DNA of 63,529 bases, counting the filler, from Chrysochromulina tobinii (Eukaryota), in assembly GCA_001275005.1 (NCBI GenBank). It is 9 parts of 9 records of this genome, joined end to end, with 100 filler letters (N's around TTAATTAATTAA, not from the genome) between each part and the next. Parts side by side here need not be neighbours in the genome. Positions count along the whole stretch, not along the records: positions 1 to 9,798 come from JWZX01000326.1; positions 9,899 to 12,557 come from JWZX01000327.1; positions 12,658 to 14,874 come from JWZX01000328.1; positions 14,975 to 36,206 come from JWZX01000330.1; 5 more parts are not named here. One strand, 5' to 3'. The notes beneath the pieces are model-generated. The model did no database searches. It saw only the letters and a list, made by a program, of their open reading frames with translations, and was not told where the DNA came from. Of the stretch, positions 2,007 through 63,383 are shown in pieces. The position numbers were made by a program, and so were the translations under genes. Position 1 is the stretch's first letter; every line of letters starts with the position of its first letter.

Positions 2007-5000
2007 GCTTCCTTTCCGAGTCACCCGAGTTTGCACGCGCCCTGGGCGCCGCGGGCATCACGTTCGTCGGGCCGACCGTTGAGGTGCGACTGATGGCGAC
2101 TGATTGCGACTGATTGCCGACCGTTGAGGTGCTACTGATGGCTACTCATTGCCACGCATTGCCGCTCATTGCTGCTCATTGCCGCTGAGTGCGGCTAGCT
2201 GCGACTGATTGCGACTGATTGCGGCTGATCTTTTACGTTTGGACTTGCTCGCAGAATCTGATGACGTTCGCCGATAAGACGACGGCACGCGCCGCGGCGA
2301 TCGCTGCGGGGGTCCCGGTAGTGCCCGGTACAGCGCGAGATCACGAAGACCGAGTGCTCCTGAGTGCCTCGACTGACCTGTGATTGGCTCCCTCATCAGG
2401 AACGGGGATGATCACGAAGACCGAGGACGCGATGGAATTCGTGACGAAGAATGGGCTACCGGTCATCATCAAGGCGGCTATGGGCGGCGGTGGCAAGGGG
2501 ATGCGTGTGGTGCGCCTGATGGCCGTTGATGACCTCTGATGACCTCTGATGACCTCTGATGACCTCTGATGACCTCTGATGACCTCTGATGACCTCTGAT
2601 GACCTCTGATGACCTCTGATGACCTCCGATTGCCCCCCTCATCAGGTGCGGCGCGTCGAGGATCTCATACCGTTCTTCAACTCGGCCTCGTCCGAAGCCA
2701 AAGCTTCCTTCGGTGACGGCTCCGTCTTCATCGAGCGCTTCGTCGATCGACCTCGGCACATCGAGATCCAGATCATCGGAGATGGCAAGGGGAATGTGGT
2801 GCACCTGTGGGAGCGCGACTGCTCAGTACAGCGCCGCCACCAGAAGGTGCTCAAGACGGCGCCCGCGTGGACTAGCCGCATGCGGGCGCTCACCACGGCG
2901 CCCACCCTCTTCCCCACAGGTGATCGAGATGGCGCCCGCGTGGACTTTGCCGATGGAGCTGCGCACCAAGCTGCATGCGGACGCGGTGCGTCTCACGGCG
3001 GCGGCCAAGTACAAGAATGCAGGCACGGTCGAGTTCCTCGTGGATGCCGAGGGGCGCTACTACTTCATCGAGGTCAACCCCCGTATCCAGGTGTGTTCCT
3101 CTGATGGCGTCTGATGGCGTCTGATGGCCTCTGATGGCCTCTGATCGCCTCTGATGGCCTCTAATTGCCTCTGATGGCCTCTGATGGCCTCTGATGGCCT
3201 CTGATGGCCTCTGATGGCCTCTGATGGCCTCTGATGGCCTCTGATGGCCTCTGATGACCCTATCTTGCCCCCGATGCGCGCAGGTTGAGCACACTGTCAC
3301 GGAGGAGGTGACCGGCATCGACCTCGTCCAAGCTCAATTTCGTGTCGCTGCGGGCGCCTCTCTTGAAGAGATCGGGCTCGTGCAGGCGAGCAGCCCCTGA
3401 TGACCTCTGATTGCATACGATCGCATACGATTGCATACGGTTGCATACGATTGCATACGGTTGCATCTGATTGCATCCGATTGCATCAGATTGCATCTGA
3501 GTGCATCTGATGACCCCTGATGACCCCTGATGACCTCCCTCATCAGGATCGTATCAGTGCATCTGATGACCCCTGATGACCCATGATGACCTCCCTCATC
3601 AGGATCGTATCAGTGTGCGCGGCGTCGCCATCCAATGCCGCGTGACCACGGAGAATGTGGAACGTGACTTCGCGCCTGATACCGGTACGCGCTCGGTCTC
3701 TTCCCGCCACCCGCGGCCGCTTCTGGGCCGTGCGAGCCTGCGAGCATGCATGCGCTCACCACGGCGCTCGCGCGCGCGCTTCCCCACAGGCACGCTCTCG
3801 GTCTACCGGCACTCGGCCGGATTTGGGATGCGGATGGATGGGATCGGCTACTCGGGCATGACGATCACGCCGTACTACGACTCGCTCCTGGTCAAGTATA
3901 CCGCGCGCGGCTCCACGTTTGGGGAGACGCTGCTGCGGATGCGGCGTGCGTTACAGGAGGCGCGCATCCGAGGTGTGAAGACCAACATCCCCTTCCTGCT
4001 CAACTGCCTCACGCATCCGCAGTTCGAGTCGGGCAAGGTGCGGCGGAGATTGCGATGGAGATTGTGATGGAGATTGCGGTGGAGATCGCGGCGGAGATGG
4101 CGATGGAGATGGCGATGGAGATTGCGGCGGAGATTGTGGCGGAGATTGTGGCTGAGTGCGGCTGCATGCCTCTGAGACGGGCGAGGGGCTCACGGCAGCG
4201 CCCCTTAGGTGCCCACGGCAGCGCCCCTTAGGTGCTCACGGCGGCGCCCGTTCGCCCTCGGTTCGCGGCAGGTGACGACGTCGTTCATTGACGAAAACCC
4301 AGATCTCCTCTCGATCTCGACCTCGAGATGGAACTTTGCAGACCGTTCGCAGGTCGACATGAAGCGCGTCGGGTTCGTCGAAAAGCTGATGCGCTATCTC
4401 GCCAATCTCGCCGTCAACGGCCACCCGGCCGCGCTCGGCGCCGACCCGACGACGCTGCACAAGATCTCGTCGGACGTGTTCACACCGACCGCGCCCAAGA
4501 CGGCGCCGGCGACCGCCGACCCATATTCGGCCGACTTTCCAAAAGGAGGTTGGCGCTCGGTGTTGCTAAAGGAGGGGCCGAAGGGCTATGCGAAGCGGGT
4601 GAGAGGATGCACGACGGGTCTGATTGGGTTCTGATTGGGCTCTGATTGGGCTCTGATTCTGATTGGGTTCTGATTGAGGTCTGATTGAGGTCTGATTCTG
4701 ATTGGGTTCTGATTGCTCCTTTCATCAGGTACGCGAGCACAAGGGTCTGTTGCTCACCGATACCACTTGGCGTGACGCGCACCAGTCGCTGCTGGCGACG
4801 CGCATGCGCACCAAGGATCTTCTTGGTTGTGCGGCGTATACCTCGGAGGCGCTTGACCGCTGCTTCAGCCTCGAGATGTGGGGAGGTGTGCCTCTGATGA
4901 CCACTGATGACGCTTTGTTTGGTCCAGCCTCGAGATGTGGGGAGGTTTGCCTCTGATGGCCTGGGCGGCCCTGCATGCAAGCGCTCACGACGGCGCCTCG

Positions 5001-5212
5001 CCACCTCCCCACAGGAGCGACTTTTGACGTGTCGATGCGCTTCCTTCACGAGTGCCCGTGGGAACGCCTCGAGCAGCTGCGTGCGGCTGTGCCCAACGTG
5101 CCGTTCCAGGTGAGGGCCACTGATGATCACTGATGACCCCTGATGACCTCTGATGATCCCTGATTGTGCCCCCAATCTCCCATTCCAGATGTTGCTGCGC
5201 GGCGCCAACGCC

Positions 5213-5245
<33 letters not shown>

Positions 5246-8200
5246 TACAAGTTCTGTGAGCAGGCGAAGAAGAGCGGTACGTGGATGGCCCGCTGAGGAC
5301 CTTGATTGCCTGTCTGCTCGCCTCTGATGACCTCTGATTGCTCGACGAGGACGCGGCGGTACGTGGATGGCCCCGCCGAGGACCTGCCTTGCATGCACGC
5401 GCTCACGACGGCGCCCTCGCTTCCCCACAGGCATCGACATCTTCCGGGTCTTCGACTCGCTCAACTATCTCGACAATCTCAAGCTCGGCGTCGACGCGGC
5501 GCTCGCGGCGGGCGCCTTCGTCGAAGGTGCGATCTCGTACACGGGAGATGTGGCCAACCCGGCCAAGACCAAGTACAATCTGGAGTACTACGTCAATCTC
5601 GCGCGCGAGCTCCAGGCGATGGGCGTGCACTCGCTCGCAATCAAGGACATGGCGGGGCTTCTCACGCCGCGCTCGGCTTCGCTGCTGGTGATTGCCACTG
5701 AGTGCCACTGAGTGCCATTGATGACCCGCGGCTGGCCGCTGCATGCAGCTGCGCTTGCGCGCTGCTTGCCCCCGCTGCTTGGCGACGGCGGCCCTCACTC
5801 ACGCGATGACGAAACACTTAAGTTTTGATTTGACGAATCTGACGCCCTTAGGGGCCGTGATTCCAATCCCCGTGTTACTGAGCGTACGAGCACCGGCTGA
5901 TGGGCCGCTGATGGCCCTCGTCATTAAGAGCACCAGCGCGGCTGGTGGGCCGCGGATGGCCCTCGTCATTGCCCTCAATGGCCCTTGATGGCCGCGGATG
6001 GCCTTCGTCACGTGCACATGCTCAAGGCCTCTCACGACATCTCACGGGCCCCTAATTGCCGCTCACGGCCCCTAATTGCCTCTCACGGCCCCTAATTGCT
6101 GCCCTCGTTGGCCCCCTCATTAGGTGAGCGCCATCCGCAAGGAGTGCCCGGAGCTGCCCATCCACGTGCACACCCACGACACCGCGGGCGCCGGCGTCGC
6201 ATCCATGCTGGCCGCGGCTGAGGCCGGCGCCGACATCGTCGACGTAGCGATCGACGCGATGTCCGGGCTCACGTCGCAACCGTCGCTCGGCGCGATGGTG
6301 GCCAATCTCGCAGGCTCGAGATTAGACACTGGGCTGGATCCGAGCATGGTTGGGCCGCTCAACTCGTACTGGGAGACGGTAATCAACTGCCAAATACTAA
6401 TGATTACCATTGATTACCATTGATTACCATGGTCGGGCCGCTCAACTCGTACTGGGAGACGGTAATCAGTTGCCAATGACCAATGATTACCATTGATTAC
6501 CATTGATTACCATTGTTGGACCTCTCAACTCGTCCTGGGAGACGGTAGAATGGCACCGGACCTCCCCTCTGCCTGAGCCCCTCTGCCTGAGACATCCGCG
6601 CCCTGCATGCGCGTGCTCACGGCGGCGCGCACCCCCGTGCACCCTCCCCTTGCGGCAGGTTCGCTCCAACCTGTACGTGCCGTTCGAGTCGGGCCAACTC
6701 TCGACGCTCGGCATGCATGTGCTCACCGCGGCGCCCTCCTCTCCCCACAGGTACGTGCCGTTCGAGTCGGGCCAGCTCTCGACCTCGTCCGACGTGTACG
6801 AGCACGAGATCCCGGGAGGTCAGTACACGAACCTTCTCTACCAGTCTCGTCAGCTCGGCCTCTCCGCTAAATGGCCCGAGATTAAGGCGATGTATGCCAA
6901 GGCGAACTTGCTGCTCGGCGACATTCCGAAGGTGACGCCCCTCTGATTGATGTCTGATTGCAATCTGAGTCCAATCTGATTGCAATCTGATTGCAATCTG
7001 ATTGCCTCGCTGCTCGGCGATATTCCAAAGGCGGTGCCCCTCTGATTGATGTCTGATTGCAACCCCTCCCCCTGCCCCGTCCCCCTACCACTTCCTCTAC
7101 AACTCCCCCTCACCCTCACCCTTCCCCCTTTCCCCACAGGTAACGCCTTCATCCAAGGTCGTGGGCGACCTCGCACAGTTCATGGTCTCCCAGCGCCTCG
7201 AGCCAGAGGACGTCCTCGAGCAGGTGCGTCCTCTGATTGCCTTTGATTGCCTCTGATTGCGACTGATTGCGCCTCGAGCCAGAGGATGTTCTCGAGCAGG
7301 TGCGTCCTCTGATTGCCTTTGATTGCCTCTGATTGCGACTGATTGCGCCTCGAGCCAGAGGATGTTCTCGAGCAGGTGCGTCGTCGTCCTCTGATTGCGC
7401 CTTGATTGCGCCTCCGTGGCTGTGCCCTTTGATTGCGCCTTGATTGCGCCTTGATTGCGCCTCCGTGGCTGTGCCCTTTGATTGAGCCTTGATGATGATG
7501 ATGAGAGTCCTCTGATGAGGCCCATCATCACACGAGCCAGCGTCGATGACGACACCAATCAACCATTTCAGCCGAACTGACCTTCGGGCAGCACTTGACG
7601 AAATTCATGGAACCATACTCTCCCTTCGGAGGCGCTCGCTCTCCCTTCCTTTGATCTCCCTTGATCTCCCTTGATTGCCCTTGATGACCCTTGACGACCC
7701 TTGACGACCCTTGATCACCCTTGATCTCCCCCCTTGACTGCCCCCCTTCTTTTCCCCCCCTCTGACAACCCCCCCCTGCTTGCACCGCCCCCCCCCGCTT
7801 GCAGGCCGAGACGCTCGCCTTCCCCGAGTCAGTCGTCGAGTACTTCCAGGGTGCCATCGGCATCCCCCCCGGAGGCTTCCCAGAGCCTCTCCGCACCAAA
7901 ATGCTCAAGGGGCGCGCCGGCAAGGTCTTCGACGGCCGCCCCGGCGCGTCGTTGCCTCCGTACGACTTCGCCGAGGCTGAGTCCAAACTTCGTCAAACGT
8001 TCGGGCAGTGGCTCAGCGACAAGGATGTCCTCTCGCATGCAATGTACCCGAAGGTGTTCAATGAGTGGAAGAAGTACGAGCTCATCTACGGCGAGGTGCG
8101 TGATTGGCCTTGATTGGCCTTGATTGGCCTTGATGACCGTATGTGCTCATCTACGGTGATGACTCGCGCAATCAGGTTGGCAATCTGCCGACGCATCTCT

Positions 8201-9100
8201 TCCTCAAGCCGATGGAGCCAGGGCAGGAGGTGATGAGCCCTGATGAGCCCTGATGAGCACTGATCACCACTGATGGCTCTCTTCCTCAAGTTGCCGATGG
8301 AGCCAGGGCAGGAGGTGTCCCTCGAGCTTGAGAAGCCTTGATTGCGTCTGATTGCGTCCCTCATCAGGTGTCCCTCGAGCTTGAGAAGCCTTGATTGCGT
8401 CTGATTGCGTCCCTCATCAGGTGTCCCTCGAGCTTGAGAAGGGGAAGTCGCTGCTCGTCAAGCTCGTCTCCATCCCCCCCCCGAATGAGGACGGCATCCG
8501 ACAGGTGATCATGGAGCTCAACGGCGAACGCTGGTTCGTCTCGATCACGGACGAGAAGGCCGGTGCGGCGGTGCGCAGGCGTGAAAAGGCCGGCGCACCA
8601 GGTACTGTGGGGGCGACGATGCCCGGTGTGATCGTCGACATCAAGGTCAAGCAGGGCGACTTCGTCAAGGAAGGCGACCAGCTCGCGGTGCGTCTGATTG
8701 CCTCTGATGACAACGATTTCGTCAAGGAAGGCGACCAGCTCGCGGTGCGCGCGCGCGCGCGCCGTGCTGGGCGTGTGCGATTGCCTAATTCGGCGAGTCT
8801 CAAAATACGCGTGATTGCGTCCCTCTTCACACATAATTGCGTCCCTCTTCACACGTGATTGCGTCCCTCTTCACACGTGATTGCGTCCCTCTTCACACTT
8901 GATTGCGTCCCTCTTTACAGGTCCTCTCGTCCATGAAGATGGAGACTGTCATCCCCGCCCCCGCCACCGGCATCGTCGAACGCGTCCTCGTGAGCGCTGG
9001 CGACAATGTGGCCGCCGACGACCTCCTCGCCGTCATCGGAGACGCCAAGCCGCCGACCTCGGGGGGGGGCGGCAAGGTGGAGAAGCTCTGGGCGCAGTAA
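2007..9100 (+). CDS. PYC: Pyruvate carboxylase, 5'-incomplete, 21 exons: 2007-2083, 2255-2327, 2400-2509, 2646-2846, 2920-3090, 3284-3385, 3603-3684, 3790-4037, 4272-4598, 4729-4885, 5015-5109, 5189-5276, 5431-5687, 6124-6378, 6659-6672, 6751-6931, 7140-7223, 7805-8095, 8176-8229, 8421-8687, 8921-9100
   Basis: The spliced frame is continuous (about 1104 codons). Biotin carboxylase motifs: [41 protein letters not shown]. Carboxyltransferase motifs: [53 protein letters not shown]. Biotinyl domain: SMKMET. Confidence 0.95.
5801..5885 (+). ncRNA. Candidate intronic box C/D snoRNA (PYC intron 5688-6123)
   Basis: AT-rich island with C-like GCGATGA (5803-5809), D' CTGA (5839-5842), a GCCC/GGGC hairpin, C'-like GTGATT, D box CTGA (5878-5881) and ACGC/GCGT ends. 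TCCCCGTGTT before the D box is complementary to the conserved 18S rRNA stretch AACACGGGGA (rRNA sequence recalled, not searched). Confidence 0.45.
7534..7641 (+). ncRNA. Candidate intronic box C/D-like snoRNA (PYC intron 7224-7804)
   Basis: Terminal stem GAGC-C-AGCGTC / GGCGCT-C-GCTC, GATGA at 7545-7549, CTGA at 7577-7580, a CC-TTCG-GG tetraloop and C'-like TTGACGA. ACCATACTCTCCCT (7612-7625) can pair with conserved 18S GGGGGGAGUAUGGU using two G-U pairs. The D box is non-canonical (CGGA). Confidence 0.45.
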
Positions 9101-9798
9101 GTGCTCAGCACGGCGCAGAGGCTCTTGGCGTAATAAGTGCTCATCACGGCGGAGAGGCTCTGGGCGCAGTAAGCGCTTATAAGTGCTCAGCAACAACAAG
9201 TGTCCATGCGCGGGACGTGTGGGCAGAGGGTTGGAGGCTCGTCGACATGACACGCCCCCGGTTTCGTCAGGCAGAGGGTTGGAGGCTCGTCGACAGAGGA
9301 AGCTTGATGGCGCATAGGCCATCGCGCGGCGCTCGGCGGCGGAGCTTGATCCGCCTTAGGTGTGTGAATTGGGTAGGGGTGTGAATGTAGGGGTGTGAAT
9401 TGGGTGGGACAGGGGTTGGCGACTTGGCAACACATGTGTGGCGCGCCCCGGGCACTCGGGACACTTGATCGAGACATTGCATGCGTCTCTGGTGATCTCC
9501 GCGATGCAACCTTAGCATGGAGCATGGGAGGGTCTTCGTCGCGCATCGGTCAGTCCGGCATGAGAGGGGTTCGTGGCGTGGGGTTGAGGGCGCAGGACTG
9601 GAAGGTGCAGCGCCGGCCAAGGGTGGAGCGTATGCCGCTGCTGGGGCTGCGGCGAGGGCGGGGAGAGTAGGCTGGACGATCGGCTGGAATCTGGAGATGG
9701 AGTCTCGAGTCAGGGTGCGGCGCCGGGTTGGGACCCTTCCCTGCTGTAACTACCCAGGGCAACCTGCAGCCCTTGGCCGCGACTGCGACTGGCCGGCG

Positions 9799-9898
9799 NN
9801 NNNNNNNNNNNNNNNNNNNNNNNNNNNNNNNNNNNNNNNNNNTTAATTAATTAANNNNNNNNNNNNNNNNNNNNNNNNNNNNNNNNNNNNNNNNNNNN
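9799..9898. other. Artificial contig-joining spacer
   Basis: N44-TTAATTAATTAA-N44 stop-codon linker. Confidence 0.98.
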
Positions 9899-9901
9899 GA
9901 G

Positions 9902-10193
9902 ACCGTCATCGACAAAACGTCGTTGACGGTTTTTGAGCCAAACCGTCATCGACGTAAAAGTCGATGACGGTGTTAGTCGGAGACCGCCATCGACGAAAAA
10001 GTCGATGACGGTGTCTGAGCCACACCGTCATCGACGAGTGACGGTTTCAATTAGCACCTGTCATCGATAAAGTTTGTCGATGACGGGGGCTGACTCACAC
10101 CGTCATCGACGTTTTTGTCGATGACGGTTTGAGTCAAAGACCGTCATCGAGAAAGTTTGTCGATGACGGGGTGGTCTTGCAACCGTCATCGAC
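9902..10193. repeat. Array of ACCGTCATCGAC-N5-7-GTCGATGACGGT hairpins with 11-nt spacers
   Basis: Seven hairpin units (one with an internal deletion) plus a half unit. Confidence 0.95.
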
Positions 10194-10887
10194 ACAGGAT
10201 CGAGGATGTCGCCGATGTGCGATGACGGGAAATGACGGGAAATTTCGTCGGCCGACCGTCATTGATCGCAAAAGTTTTCATGTCGCAACGACCCCAACAC
10301 ATTGACAGGTTGACGTTGTTCAAGCACTTTCTGATGAGACCACGCAGCTGTTCGGGGGTGGGCCGCCGGCCTTCAGGCGGCGGCGGGAGGGCAAGCACGC
10401 CCTCGGGCACATGCGTGCCCCAACAAGCGATGGCCACCTTACCCGCGGCGACTTGGTCGAGCGTGGCAGTGAGCGTCACGCGGAAGCCGCAGCTGCTGTA
10501 GAACCTGCGAGCGCGACCACCGCAGGCCTCCAGGCAGGTGCCATAGCCTCCACAACAAGTCCGGTGGCAATTGGGTGCGGTCGTCGTTGATTTTCCGGTG
10601 CAAGCAAACTCCCACTCGTAGACGACCGCGTGTGGATCACGTTTCGATAGCTCAACGCCGGCAGGCGTGAGCGTCAGTATGTCCTGCATGTCGGACTTGC
10701 GACTTGGCAGGTGCGAGTTGATCGCGAGGTACTTGAGATCCACCTTGCGACCTCGAGTCTGATTGAAGTTGTAGTGAGTCACGAAGGCGGGTCCGTTCGC
10801 AAAGACAAACTCCGGCACCTGCTCACCTGCGGCGATGAGCCACTTGTTTGGGCCCAGCTGTTGGACGAGGGCGCCGAGCTTCGTCAT
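10186..10887 (-). CDS. Cys/His-rich protein, probable truncated WRKY-GCM1/FAR1-type zinc-finger DNA-binding domain of a transposase
   Basis: The pattern EFACTG...SSCGFRVTLT...WGTH resembles the FAR1/MULE N-terminal finger. The 3' end of the ORF runs into the repeat arm. A second copy lies at 11988-12472. Confidence 0.5.
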   Translation of the reverse strand: MTKLGALVQQLGPNKWLIAAGEQVPEFVFANGPAFVTHYNFNQTRGRKVDLKYLAINSHLPSRKSDMQDILTLTPAGVELSKRDPHAVVYEWEFACTGKSTTTAPNCHRTCCGGYGTCLEACGGRARRFYSSCGFRVTLTATLDQVAAGKVAIACWGTHVPEGVLALPPPPEGRRPTPEQLRGLIRKCLNNVNLSMCWGRCDMKTFAINDGRPTKFPVISRHRTSATSSILCR

Positions 10888-11103
10888 GCTTGCGGTGCAC
10901 CTTATTCGAAGTGGACATCTTCACAAGCGAGTGCGAGCGTGCGAGTGCGTCGCGGCGATTGATGAACGCTCAATTCGACGCGAAAGAACCGCCTGGAACA
11001 CAAAAGTAACGTATAGCAGGGCCATTCAGTTTCTCGGCACGTCGTGACTATGTCTCCGACGAAACCATCATCGACTTACATCAATTGACTTATATGTATT
11101 TGT

Positions 11104-11787
11104 GTCGATGACGGTTGCAAGACCACCCCGTCATCGACAAACTTTCTCGATGACGGTCTTTGACTCAAACCGTCATCGACAAAAACGTCGATGACGGTGT
11201 GAGTCAGCCCCCGTCATCGACAAACTTTATCGATGACAGGTGCTAATTGAAACCGTCATCGACGAAACTCGTCGATGACGGTGTGGCTCAGACACCGTCA
11301 TCGACTTTTTCGTCGATGACGGTCTCCGACTAACACCGTCATCGACTTTTACGTCGATGACGGTTTGGCTCAAAAACCGTCAACGACGTTTTCGTCGATG
11401 ACGGTCTCCAACTGACACTGTCATCGACAAAACGTCGATGACGGTGTCAGTTGGAGACAGTCATCGACAAAACGTCGTTGACGGTTTTTGAGCCACACCG
11501 TCATCGACGTTAACGTCGATGACGGTGTCAGTCGGAGACCGTCATCGACGAAAAAGTCGATGACGGTTTCTGAGCGACACCGTCATCGACGAGTTTCGTC
11601 GATGACGGTTTCAATCAGCACCTGTCATCGACAAATACGTCGATGACGGGGGCTGACTCACACTGTCATCGACGTTTTTGTCGATGACGGTTTGAGTCAA
11701 AGACCGTCATCGAGAAAGTTTGTCGATGACGGGGTGGTCTTGCAACCGTCATCGACAGACGACCGGTACAAGTATGTCGATGACGGT
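11104..11787. repeat. Mirror-symmetric array of 15 complete hairpin units centred near 11431
   Basis: Same 12-bp motif and 11-nt spacers. The spacer order on the right is the reverse complement of the left, with several substitutions. Confidence 0.95.
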
Positions 11788-11987
11788 TTCGTCGGAGACA
11801 AAGTCACGACGGCTTGTAACCTCGGCGCACGTGCCGAGAAACTGAATGGCCCTGCTTGACGTTACTTTTGTGTTCCAGGCGGTTTCTTCGCGTCGAATTG
11901 AGCTTTCATGACTCGCCGCGAACGCACTCGCACGCTCGCTCGCGCTTTGGGACGATGTCCGCTTCGAAAGAAGGTGCACCGCAAAGC

Positions 11988-12472
11988 ATGACGAAGCTCG
12001 GCGCCCTCGTCCAAACAAGTGGCTCATCGCCGCAGGTGAGCAGGTGCCGGCGTTTGTCTTTGCGAACGGACCCGCCTTCGTGACTCACTACAACTTCAAG
12101 CAGCCTCGAGGTCGCAAGGTGGATCTCAAGTACCTCGCGATCAACTCGCACCTGCCAAGTCGCAAGTCCGACATGCAGGACATACTGACGCTCACGCCTG
12201 CCGGCGTTGAGCTATCGAAACGTGATCCACACGCGGTCGTCTACGAGTGGGAGTTTGCGTGCACCGGCAAATCGTATTACACGACAACCGCACCCAATTG
12301 CCACCGGACTTGTTGTGGAGGCTATGGCACCTGCCTGGAGGCCTGCGGTGGTCGCGCTCACAGGTACAGCAGCTGCGGCTTCCGCGTGACGCTCACTGCC
12401 ACGCTCGAGCAAGTCGCCGCGGGTAAGGTGGCCATCGCTTGTTGGGGCACGCATGTGCCCGAGGGCGTGCTT
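11988..12472 (+). pseudogene. Second, inverted and frameshifted copy of ORF 10186..10887
   Basis: Near-identical sequence with a 13-nt deletion at a CCAA microhomology near 12012. Interrupted at ~12473 by CTGTCGAG repeats. Confidence 0.8.
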
Positions 12473-12481
12473 GAGCCCTGG

Positions 12482-12557
12482 CTGTCGAGCTGTCGAGCTG
12501 TCGAGGCTCCGTCGAGGCGCTGTCGAGGCGCTGTCGAGTCGACTGTCGAGGCGCTGT
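12482..12557. repeat. Tandem CTGTCGAG(G)-based repeats at contig end
   Basis: gctgtcgagc tgtcgagc tgtcgaggc... visible up to the gap. Confidence 0.85.
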
Positions 12558-12657
12558 NNNNNNNNNNNNNNNNNNNNNNNNNNNNNNNNNNNNNNNNNNN
12601 NTTAATTAATTAANNNNNNNNNNNNNNNNNNNNNNNNNNNNNNNNNNNNNNNNNNNN
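12558..12657. other. Artificial contig-joining spacer
   Basis: N44-TTAATTAATTAA-N44. Confidence 0.98.
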
Positions 12658-12782
12658 GGTGGCGAGACGCGAGGCGCGCATACCCAAGGTTTTCCCCACA
12701 GCCCTCTTCACGCTGGACGAAGGTCGACTCCCTCGACTCCCCGCACAGCACAGCAGCACGATCAGCAGCTGCACGATCATTC

Positions 12783-14874
12783 ATGCCGACCGCCCCTGGC
12801 CCACACGACGCCGGCATCGAGTACGGCGTGCTCGCTGCGGATATCGCAGCAGATAACATGGCAGCTCACATCGCTGCCGCCGACGAGAGGATGGGTGCAC
12901 CACCTCAGCCATACGCCGATGGCACCATGCATCGTCCCGGGGAGCTTGAGGGCTTGAGCGATCTCCATGGCATCACGCCGATGCCATCACGCCGCGCAAG
13001 CGGGGATCACGCGCCGACTCCTTCACACGCCGACGCTGACGAAGGCGACGGCGAGGGCAGCGACGAGGGCGAGCGCATGGGCGGGCTGGTGCTCCGCCAT
13101 GATGGGCACGATGGTCGGCGCGAGGGCGGCGCGCCCTTCGACGGCCACGACGCCTTCGCCACTTCCCTCGATCGCTTCAAGCATCCTCCCGTGGACCGCT
13201 TGAGCGAGATCATTGGCTTCATCCTGAGAAAAGAACCGTGGGAGATCAAGCCAGAGGATGCGAAACTGCTCCTCGTGAGCAGAATAGAAGGGGGCCCCGC
13301 TTTGCAAGTGCCGAGCCAGAAACATGCCAAATGGGTGAGGCAGTTTGTGCCGCACGTCTTCTTTGTCGAGAGCGACACACAAGATGCGGGCGACATCGAA
13401 GAGAGCGACAGACAAGTAATCTCGACCAGTGGCGCGGATTCGCACACTGTGACTCAAGTCGACGACTTTATCGCAGTGACACGGGCAAGCAGCTCGTCTG
13501 GGAAGGATAGTCCCTACCCCAAAAAGGTGGGTCAGTGGCAGCTGGCGCTTCTGAAAGGCCACCCTGATTATGGGAGTGACGTCTTCCGAGGCATTCAGCT
13601 CAAAGAGGCGAGACAGATAGGCCGTGAGAATATATGGTGCAGAATCTCTGGCCCGAAACTCGTTCACTCGGTCCCCGACATAAACAAGGGACGCAGGGTC
13701 GGTGCTGGCTCGAGCTCAGATGCTCGAGCTCAGATGCGGAGAGACGCTCAGTGGAAACAGACGCCTCCAATGCCACCAAGAATGCCGCCGCCACTGCCCC
13801 CTCAAAAACACCCCTCGGACGAGCACGACGATGAGCGCAACGAGTGCTTAGACTACACTAAGTTCGAGCTCGAGACGGCGCTCCGCAACTACGAGGACTT
13901 CCATCGGCTCCCAATCGGCCGTGCCACAGTCGAGCAGCTCCAGAGCTCTTCGGCCAAGATAGACGGCTGGCTGCGGGCTGGTCCGCACTTCCCGTCTGCC
14001 TCCGACCGCGGGCTTTTGTGGCTCGGAGACGACGAGCAGTCGATCATATGGGAGTACAGCCACCCGAAGACGCTCATCGAGTTCAGCGACGACCGTCGAT
14101 CGGCTCGCGCTGCGAAAGGGGGCCACGTCCGCTTTGCCGTGAGCACGCCCGTCCCGCTCAACAGCGAGGTGACCATCCGCGTCGACGAGAGCAAGCACAA
14201 GGACAGCGACTCGATCTTCGTCGGCGTGACGCTGGACGGGTCGGGCAGCATCTCAGCCAACTGCCGCGCGCAAGCAGTGCACCTCTTCGACGGGCGGCTT
14301 TGCCAGTTCAGCGATGCGAGCAACTCTTTCCTCTCGGAACACATGGTTAACCAGTTCGTGCCAAAGGTCCGCGTGGGCGGCACGATCTCGATCCGCACTG
14401 TCAAGCAATGGGGTGCGCAGAACGAGACGAAAATCCTGTTCGACGTCCAGGGCGACAACGACTGGAAGAAGGCAATCTTCACCGTGCAGGGCGAGGTGCG
14501 AATCTTCGTGCGCTTCAACTTCATCGAAGACGCCGTCTCCATCATCGAGGCGAGGCCGATTCCTGAGGCTTCCTCCTCCGGCGGCAGCAGCAGCGGCGCG
14601 GGCGGCCACTCCTTTCAATTCATTCCCGCGCTCGCGCTGCGTACCCCAATCGCCGAGACGCCCCCTCCGATGCCATCGATCATATGGGAGTACCGCCACC
14701 CGGAGACGCTCATCGAGTTCAGCGACGACCGTCGATCGGCTCGCGCTGCGAAAGAGGGCCACGTCCGCTTTGCCGTGAGCACGCCCGTCCCGCTCAACAG
14801 CGAGGTGACCATCCGCGTCGACGAGAGCAAGCACAAGGACAGCGACTCGATCTTCGTCGGCGTGACGCTGGACG
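12783..14874 (+). CDS. Large hypothetical protein with tandem SPRY/B30.2-like beta-sandwich domains, 3'-truncated
   Basis: Long open frame. The segment IEFSDDRRSAR...VTIRVDE...IFVGV...GGTISI is SPRY-like. Its start is repeated almost identically at ~14040 and ~14676. Confidence 0.6.
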
Positions 14875-14974
14875 NNNNNNNNNNNNNNNNNNNNNNNNNN
14901 NNNNNNNNNNNNNNNNNNTTAATTAATTAANNNNNNNNNNNNNNNNNNNNNNNNNNNNNNNNNNNNNNNNNNNN
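14875..14974. other. Artificial contig-joining spacer
   Basis: N44-TTAATTAATTAA-N44. Confidence 0.98.
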
Positions 14975-15249
14975 CCCCCCCTTTGGATTGACTGGCGCGC
15001 GCCCACGCCTGGTCTACGCCCGGTCGACACGCCCGGCACGGCGCGCGGCACTGAGCCAGTACGGAGAGGTCCGCCGAGGAGAGCGGCCGGGGTGACTGTA
15101 GCGTAGGCGGCTGCAGGCAGTCGCGCGAGATTCGTCCTCACTCATGGCCATCGAACTGAGTGCCGCTGAACGCTGCTGAACGCTGACGAACGCTGAGTGC
15201 ACCCCTCAGCATACCCTCAGCAGAGGCCCTCATGCATGACATTGGCGGC

Positions 15250-16278
15250 TTACTCACTGAAATGGTCCGCATCGTCGTCGGCGGCACAGAATACACCCCC
15301 CGCTGCGCAGGCAGCCTCGGCTGCCTCCTTGACCTTCACCTTACGCGTGTGCACGGCGTGCCGACGCATCATGGCAGGGGTGGCGACTACGTCCCAGAGC
15401 AGCGACGACTCGATCGTGGCGGGCTGACTTGCCGCGTCCCATACCGTGCGCAGGTCGGGCCCGATCTCGTCCAGTATCTCGTCCTCGAAGCTGATGATGA
15501 TGTCCAGCATCACCGCCTCCTCCGCGGTCTCATACACACCTTCGAAAGCCCGTTCAAGGAACGGGCACGAGGACGGCGTGCGCAGAATACGGCCCTCGAC
15601 CGCGTTGGCACTAGAGCGTTTCGCCTCCATCACCAGCGGCGCTGCATCGAGCTCGAAAAAGTCGAAGAGCTCGACTTCGTCAGTTTTGTCCTCCGCCGCG
15701 TCGCTCGAGAAGCTGCTCGTGATTGTCGGTGTCGAGGGCGCTGTGACCGGTGAGGTCCGTCTTGATGACAACTTGGTAGCGTCCCCGAGGGAAATAATCG
15801 TTGCTTCATCGGAAGTGTCCTCGCCGTCGTACATAAGCTCTGGCTGCTTCATTTGGGGAGCGCAGAGCATGATAGCCTTCATCTCCTTCTGCGACTGCTC
15901 TCGTCCACACCGATTGGGACGGAGCGAGTCCAGCGCCTCGAGTGCATGTGGCCACGCGTGCCCCGAGGGTAACTCACATCCGAACACACCGCCGTCGCGC
16001 TCATGCATCTGGCAGCACTTGTGCCCGTGAGCCGTGACTCGCTTGCTCTGCCTCTGAACTGGGAAGGTAATGAACTCGGGCACGGTAATGGACGCAGGCT
16101 CAGCAAAGAGGTGCGTACTTTGGCCGATGGCGGAGGTATGAGGCATCGAGGGCTGCAGCGATGGATCAGCGCTGCGCTTGCGTGACGGCATGAGCTGTAG
16201 GGACTCGGTGAGAAGGCGTAAACGAGCACAGCTGACCCTGCTACGCTTTTCAGTGGCCGCGCCGCGAGGACCACTCAT
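15250..16278 (-). CDS. Hypothetical acidic protein; true start may be MPSRKRS at 16191
   Basis: 342-codon ORF with coding-like composition. Upstream minus-strand GTACGA...GCTAAC...ACAG suggests a 5' intron. No family recognised. Confidence 0.5.
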   Translation of the reverse strand: MSGPRGAATEKRSRVSCARLRLLTESLQLMPSRKRSADPSLQPSMPHTSAIGQSTHLFAEPASITVPEFITFPVQRQSKRVTAHGHKCCQMHERDGGVFGCELPSGHAWPHALEALDSLRPNRCGREQSQKEMKAIMLCAPQMKQPELMYDGEDTSDEATIISLGDATKLSSRRTSPVTAPSTPTITSSFSSDAAEDKTDEVELFDFFELDAAPLVMEAKRSSANAVEGRILRTPSSCPFLERAFEGVYETAEEAVMLDIIISFEDEILDEIGPDLRTVWDAASQPATIESSLLWDVVATPAMMRRHAVHTRKVKVKEAAEAACAAGGVFCAADDDADHFSE

Positions 16279-16684
16279 CTGCGTGGACGAAGCGCGCGTT
16301 CCAAATTAGGGAGAATGAGCGCAAATCGCATCATCTCCCCACGACAGCTCCTGTTACGTGTTAGCCTCAGCGCGGGTCCCTTGGCGGGTCCTCCGGGCTC
16401 CGGCAGATGTCCGGCAAGGGCAGTCCTAACAGTCCGGCCGGCTGCGCTGCAAGCTGCGCTGCGGTCCCAGGAGTGTCCCAGGGGCTGCGGTTTCGTACCT
16501 CCCAAGACAAGTCTATACAGATACTACAGACACCCATACGGAAGCCTATCGAGAGAGCACCGGAAGGGTGGAAGGGAGGGGGCGGAGAAGACGGACTTGA
16601 CTTGCCATGACTTGACTGCAAACACATTTGATGACCGACCCTGACCAGACCTGATCGTGGCACGCACCTCTTTCATCACGCCGA

Positions 16685-17557
16685 ATGACAGTACTGAAAA
16701 GAGGCGTCATCGCCAAGGCGCTCCTTGAGGGCACTTCAGCGCCGGTATTCACCGCGCGCATGGCTGATCGAAAGTTGCGTTGGGAGTTCCTTGGTCGGCC
16801 GACGCCATTTCCGTTCAAGATTCTAGACAAACTCGGTCAGAAGGCGTTTGCAAAAGAGCACGGAGCTGATGTGCCCGCCACCCTGGCCGTCTTTGACGCT
16901 GCCGAGATCGCCGCCGACAAATCGGCGCTGCGCTCACATCTCGCGCGATGCTCTTCGGATTTTGTGCTGAAACCTGTGCACGGCTACCAGAACAAACAAG
17001 CGTTTGCCGTGCGTGGAGGGGCACACGACCTGCTTCGCAACAAATCATTTGACGTGAATGCTGCCGCGGATGTGATCGCCGCCGACGATGAGTTCAGCTC
17101 TTACATGGTGGAGGAGCTCCTGGCGGATGAACGGGGCGACGCTGCGCCCTCGCGCTTGCCGGTGGATTTCAAGTTCTGGTGCTTCGGCCCGACCATTGCG
17201 CACGTGACGATCATGGTGTCCCGAGAACGGCGCGGCGAAGGGTACACGGTTGCAGTCGCCGACTGCGACGAGTCGTTTACACCCCAACCCACATGGTGCG
17301 CGCTCCCAACGAGTGCGGAGAGCGGCCTTGTGGAGCTCGTGCCACTTCCACTGAAGCCCCTGTGCTGGGACCACATGGTAGCGACAGCGCGCCGGTTGGG
17401 CGCCGCCGTCGGCGCGTTCGCGCGCATCGACATTTACGCGACTCCAAGAGGCGCCGTCTTCGGCGAGTTCCAGCTCTTGTTCGACCTGGTCGACTGGAAC
17501 GATCGCGCGGACGCTGCCATTCGTACGATGTGGAGAGGACGCGACGGTGCCGGGTGA
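16685..17557 (+). CDS. TupA-like ATP-grasp fold protein
   Basis: Motifs DKLGQKAF, VPATL, FVLKPVHG, MVEELL, PVDFKFWCF, FARIDIY, VFGEF. Confidence 0.75.
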   Translation: MTVLKRGVIAKALLEGTSAPVFTARMADRKLRWEFLGRPTPFPFKILDKLGQKAFAKEHGADVPATLAVFDAAEIAADKSALRSHLARCSSDFVLKPVHGYQNKQAFAVRGGAHDLLRNKSFDVNAAADVIAADDEFSSYMVEELLADERGDAAPSRLPVDFKFWCFGPTIAHVTIMVSRERRGEGYTVAVADCDESFTPQPTWCALPTSAESGLVELVPLPLKPLCWDHMVATARRLGAAVGAFARIDIYATPRGAVFGEFQLLFDLVDWNDRADAAIRTMWRGRDGAG

Positions 17558-17707
17558 GACCGGAAGCACGTGGACGACGCTTATTAGTGAGTCTAGTGTA
17601 GTGTTGGTAGGCACGCAAAACGCAAATTTTCTGACTCTCTGACGAAATCCGGCGATACTTCCCGACTGGCCACTTCCGTCTTCGAGCACCGCTCCGCTTT
17701 ATCGACC

Positions 17708-18394
17708 ATGGGTTGCGGAGCGAGCGCGATGGAATCGCCCGCGGCCGGTAGCGCGGCTCCAAATGGATCCAAGTCGTGCACCAAGCAGGAGCCGCACGTG
17801 CCTGCCGAGCACACTCAGCAGAGAGGCTCCCTCGCACAAGGTGTTCACCACCTCAGCGTAGTGGCCATGCACAGTCTATCCGTCATCAGCGACATTCCCA
17901 CCCTCCGTCCGACCACGATGGCTCCCAAGGTGCTGCCCGCGCACCGGCCCGACGTGGGCGCTCTCCTCAAGCCGGGCGGTGACGCCCAGGGCCAGCTCAC
18001 GACGAGCAAGTTGCCTCCGTTGCTGCAGGCTCCCGCTCGACGAAAATCACTCTCTATCCCGGAAAACCTATACTCGGAGCAAATCAAAGCCGTGCTCGCG
18101 TCACCTGGTGCGAGCGAGCGGCGGAGCAAGATCATCTTGCGCGCTGCAACTGAGAGCCCGCCCTTGCTCGGCGGCGCTTGCGATCAGCCCACGCCACAAA
18201 GTACGACCTGCACGCCCCTGCCGCACTACGGACGACCGCCACCGCGGTCGCCGCCGATCAGCCGCATCAGCGGACGCTCCGTTGGGCGGCGCCACTCGCG
18301 CGCGCGGACTTCCTCCTCGTTGAGGTCGCTCTCAGAGGATGCTGAGGAGCTGATGACCTCCTTGACCTCCTTGCCCTCCTTGCCGACGGGTTGA
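17708..18394 (+). CDS. Low-complexity protein with predicted N-myristoylation/palmitoylation
   Basis: Begins MGCGAS. The remainder is Ser/Pro/Arg-rich. Confidence 0.55.
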   Translation: MGCGASAMESPAAGSAAPNGSKSCTKQEPHVPAEHTQQRGSLAQGVHHLSVVAMHSLSVISDIPTLRPTTMAPKVLPAHRPDVGALLKPGGDAQGQLTTSKLPPLLQAPARRKSLSIPENLYSEQIKAVLASPGASERRSKIILRAATESPPLLGGACDQPTPQSTTCTPLPHYGRPPPRSPPISRISGRSVGRRHSRARTSSSLRSLSEDAEELMTSLTSLPSLPTG

Positions 18395-18628
18395 TGAGCT
18401 AAGTCCCATGCGCCAAGCGCCATGGAGCATAACTGCATTATAAGAGCATATCTACTATTGGAATACTGGTGCACCCTTATTTGCTTTCTTCACGACGTTT
18501 TATTGCACATTTCCAGAACAGCGCCTGTTTGCAAGCAAGCGGCACAAATTGAAACGAATTTTAGCGGCCACACGACGGTCGGTCCCAGGGCAGCGTTTTG
18601 CCGAGGGCGACTTGCTGGTGACCTCGCG

Positions 18629-21600
18629 ATGCTTCCCGACGTTGTCGTCGTGGCGGACGCGGGTGCGTGCGAGTGGCGGTTTGGGTACGTCGAAGATGGT
18701 GGGCCGAGCGTGATTCTACCTGCACATGTGACTGCCGATGGGCGCATGGACGAGGCGAAGCTACCGGACGCGCTCCAAGCGCTCGAGAGCTTCGAGGAGC
18801 TGGAAGAGTGTGCGCTCGTGCTCGCCGAGCCTCCTGACGAGTCCGAGGCGCATCGTGAGCGCGCTGCAGCCGCCGCGTTTACCGTGCAGGCCGTGCAGGC
18901 CGTGTGCTGCTACCCTGGACCTCTGCTTGCCGTGTACAACGCCCAGTTCGACACGGGCGTGTTAGTGGACGTGGGGTTCCCCGCGACGTTCATCTACATC
19001 ATGTACGATGGCAAGAGCGTGCTCGACGGCGCAGTGCTCCATGGGCTCGGCGGTAAGCACTGCGGCCGCACGGCCGACGCGAGCTGCGACGGACTCTTTG
19101 ATCCCTCACTGTTGGACGACGAGCACGCAGCGGCCAAGGAGCTGTGCGGGCTGCCCGAGGCGATCGTGCGCACCGTGATGCTCGCGGACGTGAGTCTCCG
19201 GCAGCAGCTGCTCGGGCATGTCGTCCTCGTCGGCGGTACGAGCAAGCTCGCAAAGTGTCCAGAGCGCCTTGAGGAAGGTCTCAAAACCACTCTCGTGGAC
19301 AAGGGTGCCACGGCACTGATGCCTCGCGTGTTTGCCAACCCGGACCGGCGCCTGGCGCAGTGGCTGGGCGGCGCGCTGCTCAGCCAGATGACCTCAGCCC
19401 ACGGCCTCTTTGTGAGCCGCGAAGCCTTCAAAGCCGATCCACGAGCGGTCCACGCACCTCCACGAACGGTCGTCTGTCGCTCGTTACAGGCGATGGAAGA
19501 GCACACAGCGCAGACCAGAGCCACCGAGGCGGCGGCGCACGCAGCGGAGGCGAAGGCGACGCGCGAGCACGTGCACAAGCAGCTCGAGGCAGCGCGCAAG
19601 TTCTGGCTCGAACAATCTCCCGTTGGGAGCTCTGAGGAGCGCAGGCGCATGCGTCACACCCAAATTTGGCAGGTGAGACCCATCTATGAGCGCTCGCTGA
19701 CGCAGCAGGTGCTCGCGGCGGGCTGTTCACAGACCAAGATCGCCAAGAAGAGGCGGCGCCCGAAGAGCGGCGCGCTGGTCGAGGGCGATCCGGACGAGCG
19801 CGACGCTGACGACGACGACGGCGCTGGCGCAGCCGGCACGGGCCTCAAGGCAGCGCACGGCACGACGCCCAAGGAGCTCATGCAAGCAGCGGCCGCCGCT
19901 TCGGCAGCCAGTGGGGGCGCGGCGGCGGCGGCGGCTCTCGCAATTGCGGCTCGCGCGCTGCGTCTGCTCTGCGAGAGTGATGATGACGAGCTCATCAAGC
20001 GGCAGCTCCATCAGCGGCTAGCCGCCACATGGGCAGTGTGCGATCTGAACACCCCGAGCGTGCCAGCCGAAACGGTGCTGCGCCATCACCTGCGCCGCCA
20101 GACACGCTCGGGGTGGCTGCACTGGTGCGCCTTTGGCGCGGCGCGCGAGGCCGAGCGGCAGGCGGCGCGCGCGCGCCAACCAGCCGTGCTCACAGCCTGG
20201 GTTCGTATCGGCTCCAAGTGGGGCTCTCGTCGATGGCTCGGCCATCGAGCCCGCACCATCCTCCAACAGAGGAGGATGGACAAGGCCTCTGACTGGCACA
20301 GCACAGGGCAGCTCGGCGACGCCTGCGCAGTGTGGTACCGGTACGCCGACGCGCGACGCGCCGCGGTGGGCACCATGCACAAGGTGTGCGCCCGCTTCGG
20401 CTGCCGGCGAGCCCTCGGCGCCTTCTTCCGCCAGGCGCGTCGTCGCAAGCTCGCCCGGCTCTTCAAAGCCAGGTCGGAGTGGGCGGCGCTCAAGACGACG
20501 CTCGAGCGGGCGCTCCGCCAGTGGTCCTATATGGCGTCCATGATCCATCAAGCCGCACACGTGCGCGCGAAGCAGAAGAAGAGCGAGCGCGAGGATGGCT
20601 TGTTGCGCTGGGCTCGTGCCACCCAGGCGAAGGCGAAGGCGGAGGCCGACCTCGCCGAGGCGGCCGGCTTCGCCCGTACGGGCATAGCGATCCAGTTCTG
20701 GGTCGCCGCAACTCGCGCGGCGGTGGATGGGCGCAAGCGTCGGCGGCTCGAGGCCATCACGAGTCGCTCACGGATGCTCAAGATCCGAAGGCGTTTCGAG
20801 TTTCGTCATTTCGTCCGAGCGCACCTCGCGCGCAAGGCGCTCAAGACGCACCTGGCGGAGGTGCGCCGCCAGTTGGTGCCTAGGCAACTCAGCATGCATG
20901 TGCTCACCATGGCGCCCTGTTCCCTTCCCCACAGGTGCGCCGCCAAATGGCGATGCTCAAGCTGCGCTTCGATTCGATCAAGGCCGAGGTGCATCCGCCG
21001 TCCGCTGCCATCACGTTGATAGCCACCTGATGACCTGCCTTGCATGCGGGTGCTCACCACGGCGCCTCGCCCCCACAGGTGCACCGCCACATGTTCTTCA
21101 CCGCGGTGCAGCGCTGGGTTGCATATCAGTGGCGAATGAAACGGCGCGATGTCGAGGCTCGATGGCTTCAGCCGCGAGGCGATGGCGCCGCGTGCCGGCG
21201 CGGCATGCGCCGGTTTCGTCAATGGTGCGTGAAGGAGGCGAACTTTCACGAGGCCATGAGCACCCTCAAGCTGCGCGTCATCCCGCGCCGATCGTGGCGG
21301 CTCAAGGTCGACACCTTGTGGCACTGGTACACGCTGGCGAGCTGGCGACGTCGCTCGAAGCTGCTCCCGCGCCGCCGCCATCGCGTGCTCAAGGTGGCGC
21401 TCTCATACTGGTGTGCCGAGGCGCGCTGGCGCATCCAGCGGCACAAATGGCTCCGGCGGCAGGTGCGCTACATGGCCACCTGATGACCTGATTGCCACTG
21501 ATGACCTGCCTTGCATGCGGGTGCTCACCACGGCGCCTCGTCCCCACAGGTACGCTACATGGACGAGTTGCAGCACGTGCTCGACAACTTGGGCGATGGC

Positions 21601-21801
21601 CAAAAATGGGCGAAGCGGCTCCTCAGCCTTGGGCTCGAGCCGCAGGACGTGGCGCACCTGGGCCCTTTCCATCCCCGTTGCCAGAAGACGCTCGAGAAGG
21701 CGCTCCAGCGGAGCTCGCCTCCTGCCAAGTCACCGGTCTCACGCATGCGTGTCCTCTCGCCTGGGTTCGACAGCTATCTTGAGGATGCGCTCTCAAGGTG
21801 A
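18629..21801 (+). CDS. Divergent actin-related protein with a long helical Trp-repeat (Sfi1-like) C-terminal extension; exons 18629-20860, 20935-20988, 21079-21462, 21550-21801
   Basis: Actin-fold motifs VVADAG..WRFGY, LVLAEPP, DTGVLVDVG, LLGHVVLVGGTS, ERL, QWLGGALL. Three GT-AG introns keep the frame. Confidence 0.75.
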
Positions 21802-22201
21802 GGCGCGCTCTCGGCTCTCGCAGCTACTGCGACTCGTTCTTTCTCGCCCTCTCTCGCTCTCGCTTTCGTTCTCTTGCTCTTTTTCGCTCTTTTTCGCTTT
21901 TCTCGCTCTCTCTCGCTCTCTCTCGCTCTCTCGATACAATAACTAAGGTGACGTGCCCCCGGGCCTCTACATGAGGAGCACATCCCGCGCATTCCGGCAT
22001 CCAGCGAGACCTGGAACTAGATGTGTGGCATACCCTGAGGGCACCAATGAGATTGGGCCACGATGTTTGGCTGTGGGGTCCTGTGTGTTGCAGGGTGGAG
22101 AGTTACTGTGTTGCATAGTGTGTGGAGTGCGTCGTGGACGGACCCTTCTGTGAACGTTGTGGAGTCATGAAGTGGCTTAGATTGGTGTGAATTCATCATG
22201 A

Positions 22202-30242: not shown

Positions 30243-30455
30243 TGCTTGGCAATAGTTGGGTGCGTCACTCTACCTCGTACCCCTAGCAAGTGAAGTCGTG
30301 TTTCTGCACTTGCGTTGCTCATAGCCCCTTTTGACGTCGACGGACCTCTATGTGTGAATGAACACCGGGTGACAGCCCACGACAGCCAACGAGCCAAGTG
30401 ACCCAAGTTTGGTCTGCTTTTCCGCTTTTCCCGGGATACGAAAGAGCCTGAAAGC

Positions 30456-34505: not shown

Positions 34506-34591
34506 GCACACGCAGTGGAAGGCGGAGCTCGTCTCGCCCTTGGTCTCGGAGCGGGGAGATACGACAGCGCTGTGGTGAGCACACGCAGTGG
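34447..34591. repeat. 73-nt tandem duplication spanning the GH3 stop codon
   Basis: aggcggagctcgtctcgcccttgg...gcacacgcagtgg occurs at 34447 and 34520. Confidence 0.9.
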
Positions 34592-63026: not shown

Positions 63027-63383
63027 TGCGCGCGCTCAAAACGGCGCAGCGCTCGAAACGGCGCCATGCGCTCAAAACGGCGCTGCGCATTCAAACGGTG
63101 CAGCGCGCTCGAAACGGCGCTGCGTGCTCAAAACGGCGCCGCGCGCTCAAAACGGCGCTCGCTGCGCGTTCAAACGGCGCCGCGCGCTCAAAACGGCGCG
63201 CGCTGCGCGTTCAAACGGCGCCGCGCGCTCAAAACGGCGCCGCGCGCTCAAAATGGCGCTGCGCGTTCAAACGGCGCCGCGCGCTCAAAATGGCGCTGCG
63301 CGTTCAAACGGTGCTGCGCGCTCAAAACGGCGCGGCGCGCTCAAAACGGCGCGGCGCGTTCAAACGGTGCTGCGCGTTCAAAC
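63027..63383. repeat. Minisatellite of ~19-20-nt units GCGCGCTCAAAACGGCGC(C/T)
   Basis: More than 15 degenerate tandem copies, followed by three GGGTCGGCA repeats. Confidence 0.9.

Follow-up and report, generated by a model that had tools for sequence, protein, structure and literature searches.

Why should introns of unrelated genes end in the same short stretch of DNA? The question is raised by a 63,529-nucleotide stretch of the genome of the alga Chrysochromulina tobinii (GCA_001275005.1), hereafter the window, in which several introns close with a common cassette of about 40 nt that contains GCATGC, a short spacer and CTCAC and runs on to the AG of the 3' splice site. In the original prediction, the cassette was either a mobile splice-acceptor module or an unusually extended, lineage-specific branch-site signal. 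It is a real feature and probably a young intron-generating element, and we hold an origin by mobility to be highly probable. An extended branch signal is not sufficient, because 13 of the 20 mapped introns of the pyruvate carboxylase (PC) gene splice without a cassette. The mobile module is supported because copies sit outside splice contexts and because single copies have recognisable sisters in genes unrelated to their own. The minimal unit is a 24-nt core, and the acceptor tail that follows it is optional. The first reading missed that the exon duplicate belongs to the insertion event and supplies the GT of the new intron.

The window consists of nine contigs joined through N linkers, and the span of 2878-21549 first given to the cassette thus covers unlinked DNA. 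All eight AG ends assigned to it (2919, 3789, 5014, 5430, 6750, 20934, 21078 and 21549) carry a core plus CCCCACAG. The spacer between GCATGC and CTCAC is five nucleotides long and not four as first described. GCATGC-N5-CTCAC has nine exact matches in the window, all on the plus strand, and the variant ending at 6658 is among them. With at most one mismatch there are 11 matches, compared with a mean of 3.3 and a maximum of 9 in shuffled sequence. If up to five mismatches are allowed, the 24-nt core occurs 13 times in the window and 0 times in 20 block shuffles. Two ends had been listed as variants; the one at 6658 has an exact core, and the one at 4271 lacks GCATGC and shows just the core's 3' half. 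One further CCCCACAG, at 7139, has no core attached. The cassette does end introns of unrelated genes, as predicted. Six full cores lie on the contig at 1-9798, in the PC gene, three lie on the contig at 14975-36206, in a gene with an actin-family domain, and none lie on the other seven contigs. The relevant features, with lengths of protein in amino acids (aa), are as follows.

2007-9100, plus strand: mapped part of the PC gene, with 20 introns and a 1103-aa open frame from 2009 to the stop codon
2847-2919, plus strand: 73-nt PC intron, with own-exon copy at 2847-2873 (24 of 27 nt), core at 2878-2901, tail and AG
3685-3789, plus strand: 105-nt PC intron, with own-exon copy (13 of 15 nt) and core at 3744-3767
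4038-4271, plus strand: 234-nt PC intron ending in the variant with the 3' half of the core only (4232-4247)
4886-5014, plus strand: 129-nt composite PC intron, with a 5' part of 10-nt repeats, an upstream-exon copy and core at 4973-4996
5277-5430, plus strand: 154-nt composite PC intron, core at 5391-5414
6379-6658, plus strand: 280-nt composite PC intron, core at 6605-6628, variant tail
6659-6672, plus strand: 14-nt micro-exon between two PC cassette introns
6673-6750, plus strand: 78-nt PC intron, with own-exon copy at 6673-6705 (32 of 33 nt) and core at 6711-6734
9099-9152, plus strand: at the PC stop codon, two acceptor-less, 5'-shortened cores that agree with the consensus at 17 of 18 and 16 of 18 positions and form part of a 36-nt tandem repeat
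18629-21802, plus strand: gene with an N-terminal actin-family domain, 973-aa frame with three cassette introns removed
20861-20934, plus strand: 74-nt predicted intron, with own-exon copy (11 of 11 nt) and core at 20892-20915
20989-21078, plus strand: 90-nt predicted intron, core at 21042-21065, a sister of the copy at 21513
21463-21549, plus strand: 87-nt predicted intron, with own-exon copy (12 of 13 nt), 10-nt repeats and core at 21513-21536
34494-34517 and 34567-34590, minus strand: two degenerate antisense cores within a 73-nt tandem repeat (34494-34590)

Nineteen of the PC introns are GT-AG and one is GC-AG, and removal of all 20 leaves the open frame free of internal stops. The GC-AG intron occupies 3386-3602, and its length was confirmed by RNA contigs. 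In a FastTree tree of the window PC protein and the longer homologue matches, the window protein groups with a named Chrysochromulina protein with a support of 0.979, which makes the host a haptophyte. At the micro-exon it has one residue more than the aligned homologues shown, and the micro-exon may be an imperfect intron gain.

Intron halves of different origin

The cassette is removed as a spliceosomal intron, as seen directly for three PC introns and through length arithmetic for four more. Introns 2847-2919, 3685-3789 and 4038-4271 are skipped in RNA contigs from three of three RNA runs and are not skipped in the DNA run (X1). In RNA contig coordinates, gaps of 597 and 273 nt fit exactly the loss of 4886-5014, 5277-5430, 6379-6658 and 6673-6750, with the micro-exon 6659-6672 retained. 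The 973-aa frame of the actin-domain gene would be truncated if any one of its three cassette introns stayed, on the basis of the reading frame.

A search with the core pattern, without any acceptor bases, fetched 145 metagenome loci (labelled with an L and a number) from about 31 assemblies, as counted from contig names. The whole collection is estimated to hold about 3400 such stretches, extrapolated from 3 of 64 parts scanned with all assemblies taken together. Overlapping loci of different assemblies are 99-100% identical, L013/L056 being a more diverged pair, and the loci therefore come from a single species or a closely knit group. Under relaxed search conditions, the loci and the window yielded 283 distinct copies and shuffled sequence none, and removal of one chance match left 282. 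An acceptor follows 205 of these copies, another core follows 39, and 38 have neither. Sixteen scattered single matches in prokaryote genomes were taken as chance given their number and spread, and the matches in L114 and at L020:3628 were also dropped as chance.

The typical cassette intron begins with a GT-starting copy of its own downstream exon, followed by a short linker, the 24-nt core, a C-rich tail and AG. The three shortest introns of the window, at 2847, 6673 and 20861, had been described as little more than an exon duplicate plus the cassette, which agrees with the copies listed above; the introns at 3685 and 21463 also have own-exon copies. Across the collection, an own-exon copy is anchored at the AG in 126 of the 205 acceptor copies, and 109 of these 126 begin with GT or GC. 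A duplication score of at least 12, a cut-off that hides duplicates below about 11 nt, is reached by 150 of the 205 versus 3.7% of 593 mismatched controls. In 101 primary cases, the intron is 66-94 nt long and the duplicate spans 14-41 nt (5th-95th percentile), with a median of 26 nt and a median identity of 0.96. The last base of exon 1 is G in 82 of the 101, but its last two bases are AG in only 44, and similarity between the tail and exon 1 is at chance level (0.364 versus 0.359 +/- 0.007). The AG is thus brought by the insert, the host duplicate brings the GT, and an origin of the tail from the upstream exon is ruled out by the same similarity values.

A second intron family is present in the window (2084-8920 and 29046-34240). 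It is composed of 10-11-nt repeats, CTGATGACCT and CTGATTGCCT, and ends in CCCTCATCAG. These introns also contain copies of the upstream or downstream exon. An own-exon copy at the 5' end is found in 30 of 118 acceptors of this family versus 90 of 139 of the core family.

Could the pattern be an artefact of assembly or library preparation? Repeats hamper short-read assembly, the number of tandem units varies between assemblies, and locus L146 looks chimeric. An artefact is hardly credible all the same, since DNA contigs of run X1 cover the very introns that RNA contigs skip, identical sites recur across assemblies, and the duplicates differ from their exons by point changes. L146 is a phage-like viral contig whose final 60 nt (L146:3001-3060) are a full cassette with acceptor. 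This is likely a chimeric contig end rather than a virus-borne copy, and the match was not used as evidence.

Copies outside introns

Copies that lack an acceptor show the insertion apart from splicing. Among isolated acceptor-less copies with a duplicate, 11 of 15 inserts are multiples of three (p=0.0018), versus 57 of 150 acceptor copies. In ten of the 15 acceptor-less singletons the insert begins no more than 2 nt away from GCATGC, and in ten it stops no more than 6 nt away from GGCGC. Such sharp core boundaries in unspliced copies suggest that a protein may recognise the core. The median distance from the start of the duplicate to the core is 34 with and 37 without an acceptor (p=0.29). 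Several acceptor-less copies lie within long open frames, for example in L008, L014 and L045. The cores at the PC stop codon (9099-9152) stay in the spliced RNA contig, and 8920-9300 is continuous in three of three RNA runs. At L008:3000-3900, seven acceptor-less cores stand in one 1334-codon open frame and give rise to repeated peptides in different frames. A possible degenerate core, matching at 14 of 18 positions in its 3' part, lies within a long frame at 25154-25177 of the window.

Orientation, judged by neighbouring strand-specific intron repeats, is sense for 162 copies, antisense for 6 and not callable for 114. Strand calls from a codon model were correct for 159 of 181 controls and are too weak for single cases. 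The six antisense copies comprise three units of one array in L047, one copy each in L083 and L136, and an ambiguous one in L145. L047 holds an additional antisense core, in frame and flanked by two copies of an 11-codon stretch. In the window, a GH3 glycosidase frame on the plus strand is predicted to end at a stop codon (34503-34505) that is provided by the antisense core at 34494-34517. At L083:300-345, an antisense core also supplies a stop codon in frame; the interrupted frame resembles what we take to be the C-terminus of a family-A DNA polymerase, and Pfam gave no match on 43 aa.

These copies bear on the proposal that the cassette is just the extended branch-point and acceptor signal of the lineage and that the duplicates arose by unrelated slippage. 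CTCAC does stand at a branch-point-like distance, as predicted: in 189 introns the putative branch A, assigned by distance only, lies mostly 21-36 nt from the AG end. In addition, 140 of the 170 CCCCACAG octamers in the loci have a core upstream. The proposal is contradicted by the non-intronic copies, unless these are assembly errors, namely the 38 of 282 with neither an acceptor nor a next core and the antisense and stop-codon copies. The PC introns without a cassette and the parent-specific flanks that moved between unrelated genes also speak against a mere branch signal, and we regard it as very unlikely. Rfam gave no matches in four loci and in the window, and a U2 gene was not found in the window. 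A structured RNA at the cassette gained no support; a stem around CTCAC is predicted in four of seven folded copies with z-scores of -1.6 to +0.9. No covariation was seen at the palindrome positions of the core.

Comparison with relatives addresses whether the introns were gained. A 1114-aa PC frame of the haptophyte clade (P0012), on a 43.6-kb contig, is uninterrupted at 19 of the 20 intron positions, all seven cassette sites included. Each of these seven sites is spanned by 8-18 of 18 PC frames from contigs longer than 10 kb. P0012 and these frames were taken as DNA given their size. No position-conserved intron was found in PC. The uninterrupted relatives would fit a lineage-specific gain, and a loss in those lineages would be compatible as well. 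The allelic differences seen among the loci are in tandem copy number only (L040/L087 and L013/L056). At L040:1542-1660, the exon start and cassette unit occur twice in one assembly and once in L087, which reflects either a polymorphism or an assembly collapse.

Alternatively, the introns could be older or have been inserted whole, with 5' halves later overwritten in register by exon sequence of the same gene, supplied by spliced cDNA or by an allele lacking the intron, and with ectopic conversion homogenising the 3' ends. The lengths of duplicate and linker trade off against each other (rho -0.56, gapped) at a fairly constant sum, so that the 5' splice site lies 27-49 nt ahead of the core, and L053 and L081 have an equal 5' length of 39 nt, as overwriting would predict. 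Parts of 10-nt repeats in five of the ten window cassette introns, and the duplicates in the other intron family, point the same way. However, acceptor-less copies show identical geometry at places where no intron existed. The duplicates stop at GCATGC, which is present in 145 of the 154 acceptor copies that a search with just the 3' half retrieved (a share biased upward, the loci having been fetched by the full core), and the PC frames of relatives have no introns at these sites. Overwriting is therefore unlikely.

The part of the window at 9899-12557 contains arrays of 41-nt, palindrome-containing repeats at 9899-10192 and 11128-11760. They adjoin two inverted near-copies of a frame of 190-230 aa that has no Pfam match, and together they are possibly a transposon end. 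A 19-nt tandem repeat array of about 18 copies lies at 63029-63384, close to a contig end.

Sister copies and a proposed route of copying

Four pairs of sister copies were found in unrelated genes that have no protein similarity outside the shared stretch. L053 shares a rare core variant and 29 upstream nt with L081, and those 29 nt are the own-exon copy of L081. In L126, 21 upstream bases are those of L127, which lies about 1.7 kb away. L113 and a myosin intron in L097 have in common the core, the tail and 13 nt past the AG; At each of its junctions L113 also matches the target over 6 nt, and its duplicate is 23 nt long. L059 and L061 have one variant in common, along with a tail of 20 nt and the first ten exon bases. 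Linker subfamilies are common to several copies, and junction flanks are shared among copies of the same contig (0 of 2000 permutations). The four sister pairs, two of them with shared bases past the AG, argue in favour of DNA-level, homology-guided copying over retroposed lariats.

Under retroposition, the enzyme of a non-LTR retroelement would reverse-transcribe excised intron RNA at new sites in a target-primed reaction. The outcome would be a 3' end fixed at AG, truncated 5' ends and a target duplication that is long and variable. CCCCACAG does close most copies (103 of 190, counted at the first AG) and also the antisense copy of L136, and the linkers resemble 5'-shortened parents. The excess of sense copies among the 168 callable ones would also be expected, and long interspersed elements (LINEs) are reported with long variable duplications in the available part of PMC9977147. 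Against retroposition, L113 has donor exon bases past the AG that are absent from an excised intron, although unspliced pre-mRNA would still fit. Most acceptor-less singletons end close to the core, copies extend some 15 nt beyond the putative branch A on its upstream side, and there is no poly(A) or simple-repeat tail. The fixed 3' end with a tail that marks RNA retroposed by non-LTR elements is thus not seen in the cassette, and this route appears improbable.

The core, as a rule with a C-rich tail and AG behind it, lies between two copies of 14-41 nt of host sequence. We consider it reasonably likely that the cassette is a very small, non-autonomous element that spreads by copy-and-paste, and that an insertion turns into an intron if the host bases it duplicates start with GT. 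The junctions suggest a likely course of events. A nick or break would leave about 35 nt of target for duplication. Synthesis would then switch to an existing genomic copy, often a nearby one, beginning at GCATGC or just before it. It would pass through the core, usually through the tail and AG, and sometimes into a few bases of the donor exon. The strand would rejoin the target where the target matches the start of the donor exon. Because donor exons start with GT(G/A)C, the rejoin point would tend to be a usable 5' splice site; the insert would be spliced, and each new intron would be a new donor. Unspliceable inserts would persist only in frame or outside coding sequence, and selection would remove the rest.

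Several observations weigh against this account. No empty allele was found among the loci, and all loci were fetched through the core, which makes the boundary counts conditional on it. No Pfam match to transposase, HUH or reverse-transcriptase families was obtained in the 73 frames scanned of 314 long frames near copies. RNA contigs do not cover the antisense copies of L047, in a gene of weak coverage. The exon duplicates of the 10-nt-repeat family mean that the process may not be specific to the core, and a shared host repair pathway is possible. On the supporting side, across 144 introns, 50 near-identical cassette pairs share 3.02 nt of exon start versus 2.26 nt in other pairs (16 of 5000 permutations), a modest effect that is driven mostly by two pairs noticed beforehand and includes the tandem pair of L040, which ought to have been left out. 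Against the account, the core alone is no more alike within contigs than between them (840 of 2000 permutations). Microhomology at the 5' junction averages 3.89 in the general test, compared with 3.36 +/- 0.23, and shifted controls reach 4.07.

Known introners and the gain of introns

Intron gain by tandem duplication or by double-strand-break repair has reportedly been described by Rogers in 1989, by Hellsten in 2011 and for gains in Daphnia. In such gains, the duplicated stretch supplies the splice sites and direct repeats flank the new introns. The cassette differs in that one 24-nt core occurs at many sites and brings an AG and a putative branch point. By the definition of introners (Gozashti 2022), a sequence is shared among introns of many unrelated genes, as it is here in 205 acceptor copies of 282. 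The similarity also extends up to both splice boundaries in that definition, whereas the 5' part of a cassette intron is a copy of its own exon. A published introner screen requires introns to resemble one another at both of their ends, and the accessible part of its supplement (PMC12130899) gives 0 families for Chrysochromulina tobinii. Such screens would miss the cassette because it has no shared 5' end. No description of the cassette family was found in the literature, and the motif had 0 matches in the part of the introner supplements that is searchable.

The closest designs combine some of its properties. Like the cassette, introner-like elements (ILEs) of Symbiodinium and Polarella glacialis (classes 4/5 and 6/8/10) bring a 3' splice site of their own and take the 5' site from where the duplication begins, according to the available part of that study (bioRxiv 10.1101/2020.10.14.339549). 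The same part gives duplications of fixed length, 4 or 8 nt, in Polarella, treats the elements as DNA transposons and describes inverted repeats for Symbiodinium. The cassette differs from these ILEs in a duplicate that is variable, 14-41 nt long and about a third of the intron, and in having two fuzzy ends. Its ends are not reverse complements on inspection of the alignment, with no dedicated search for terminal inverted repeats run. Introners of Chrysochromulina sp., from the same algal group, form 12 families averaging 48-108 nt, with family 5 at 72 nt, and have no terminal inverted repeats where these were called (PMC9860276, seen in part). In the figured example there, the duplication is 4 bp long, and it is the 5' splice site that the element carries and the 3' site that it co-opts; as described, this is the reverse of the cassette.

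The mode of copying has a parallel in Replitron-1 and Replitron-N1 of Chlamydomonas, for which the accessible text of PMC10288648 likewise gives copy-and-paste movement, a variable end derived from the flank of the parent and a duplication of variable length. The parent-derived fuzzy end and variable duplication of Replitron-1 recur in the cassette, in L081/L053, in L127/L126 and in the linker subfamilies. In the same text, the insertion signature of the Replitron-1 type is called non-canonical by its author, and one Replitron locus is reported from Chrysochromulina tobinii. Unlike the cassette, Replitron-1 is 3.6 kb and Replitron-N1 about 910 bp long; their direct terminal repeats measure 6 bp, and their target is RG. 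Inspection of the alignment found no direct repeats at opposite ends of the cassette. Replitrons are under-represented in introns, as stated in the portion of PMC9977147 at hand.

The cassette is thus a new introner variant, with a long, variable duplication, a half-intron design and readable parent-daughter junctions. The origin of new spliceosomal introns is a long-standing question, and most recent gains have been ascribed to whole-element transposons. In the cassette introns just one half is common to all, and the other half is host sequence. Pairs of parent and daughter can be seen in a single genome beside insertions that failed and insertions in antisense, and the mechanism can be read from the junctions. 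The same element adds peptides and stop codons to genes, and it offers a mechanistic route to the proto-splice-site bias. A further possibility, put forward tentatively, is that the 24-nt core is a protein-recognised micro-element, far shorter than known non-autonomous transposons, that is copied under the guidance of homology and whose target is selected by the start of the donor exon. Existing introns would then act as templates for further ones at sites that resemble 5' splice sites beforehand, intron gain would be self-reinforcing and hidden from both-end screens, and the process may explain much of the intron content of this alga, including the 10-nt-repeat family.

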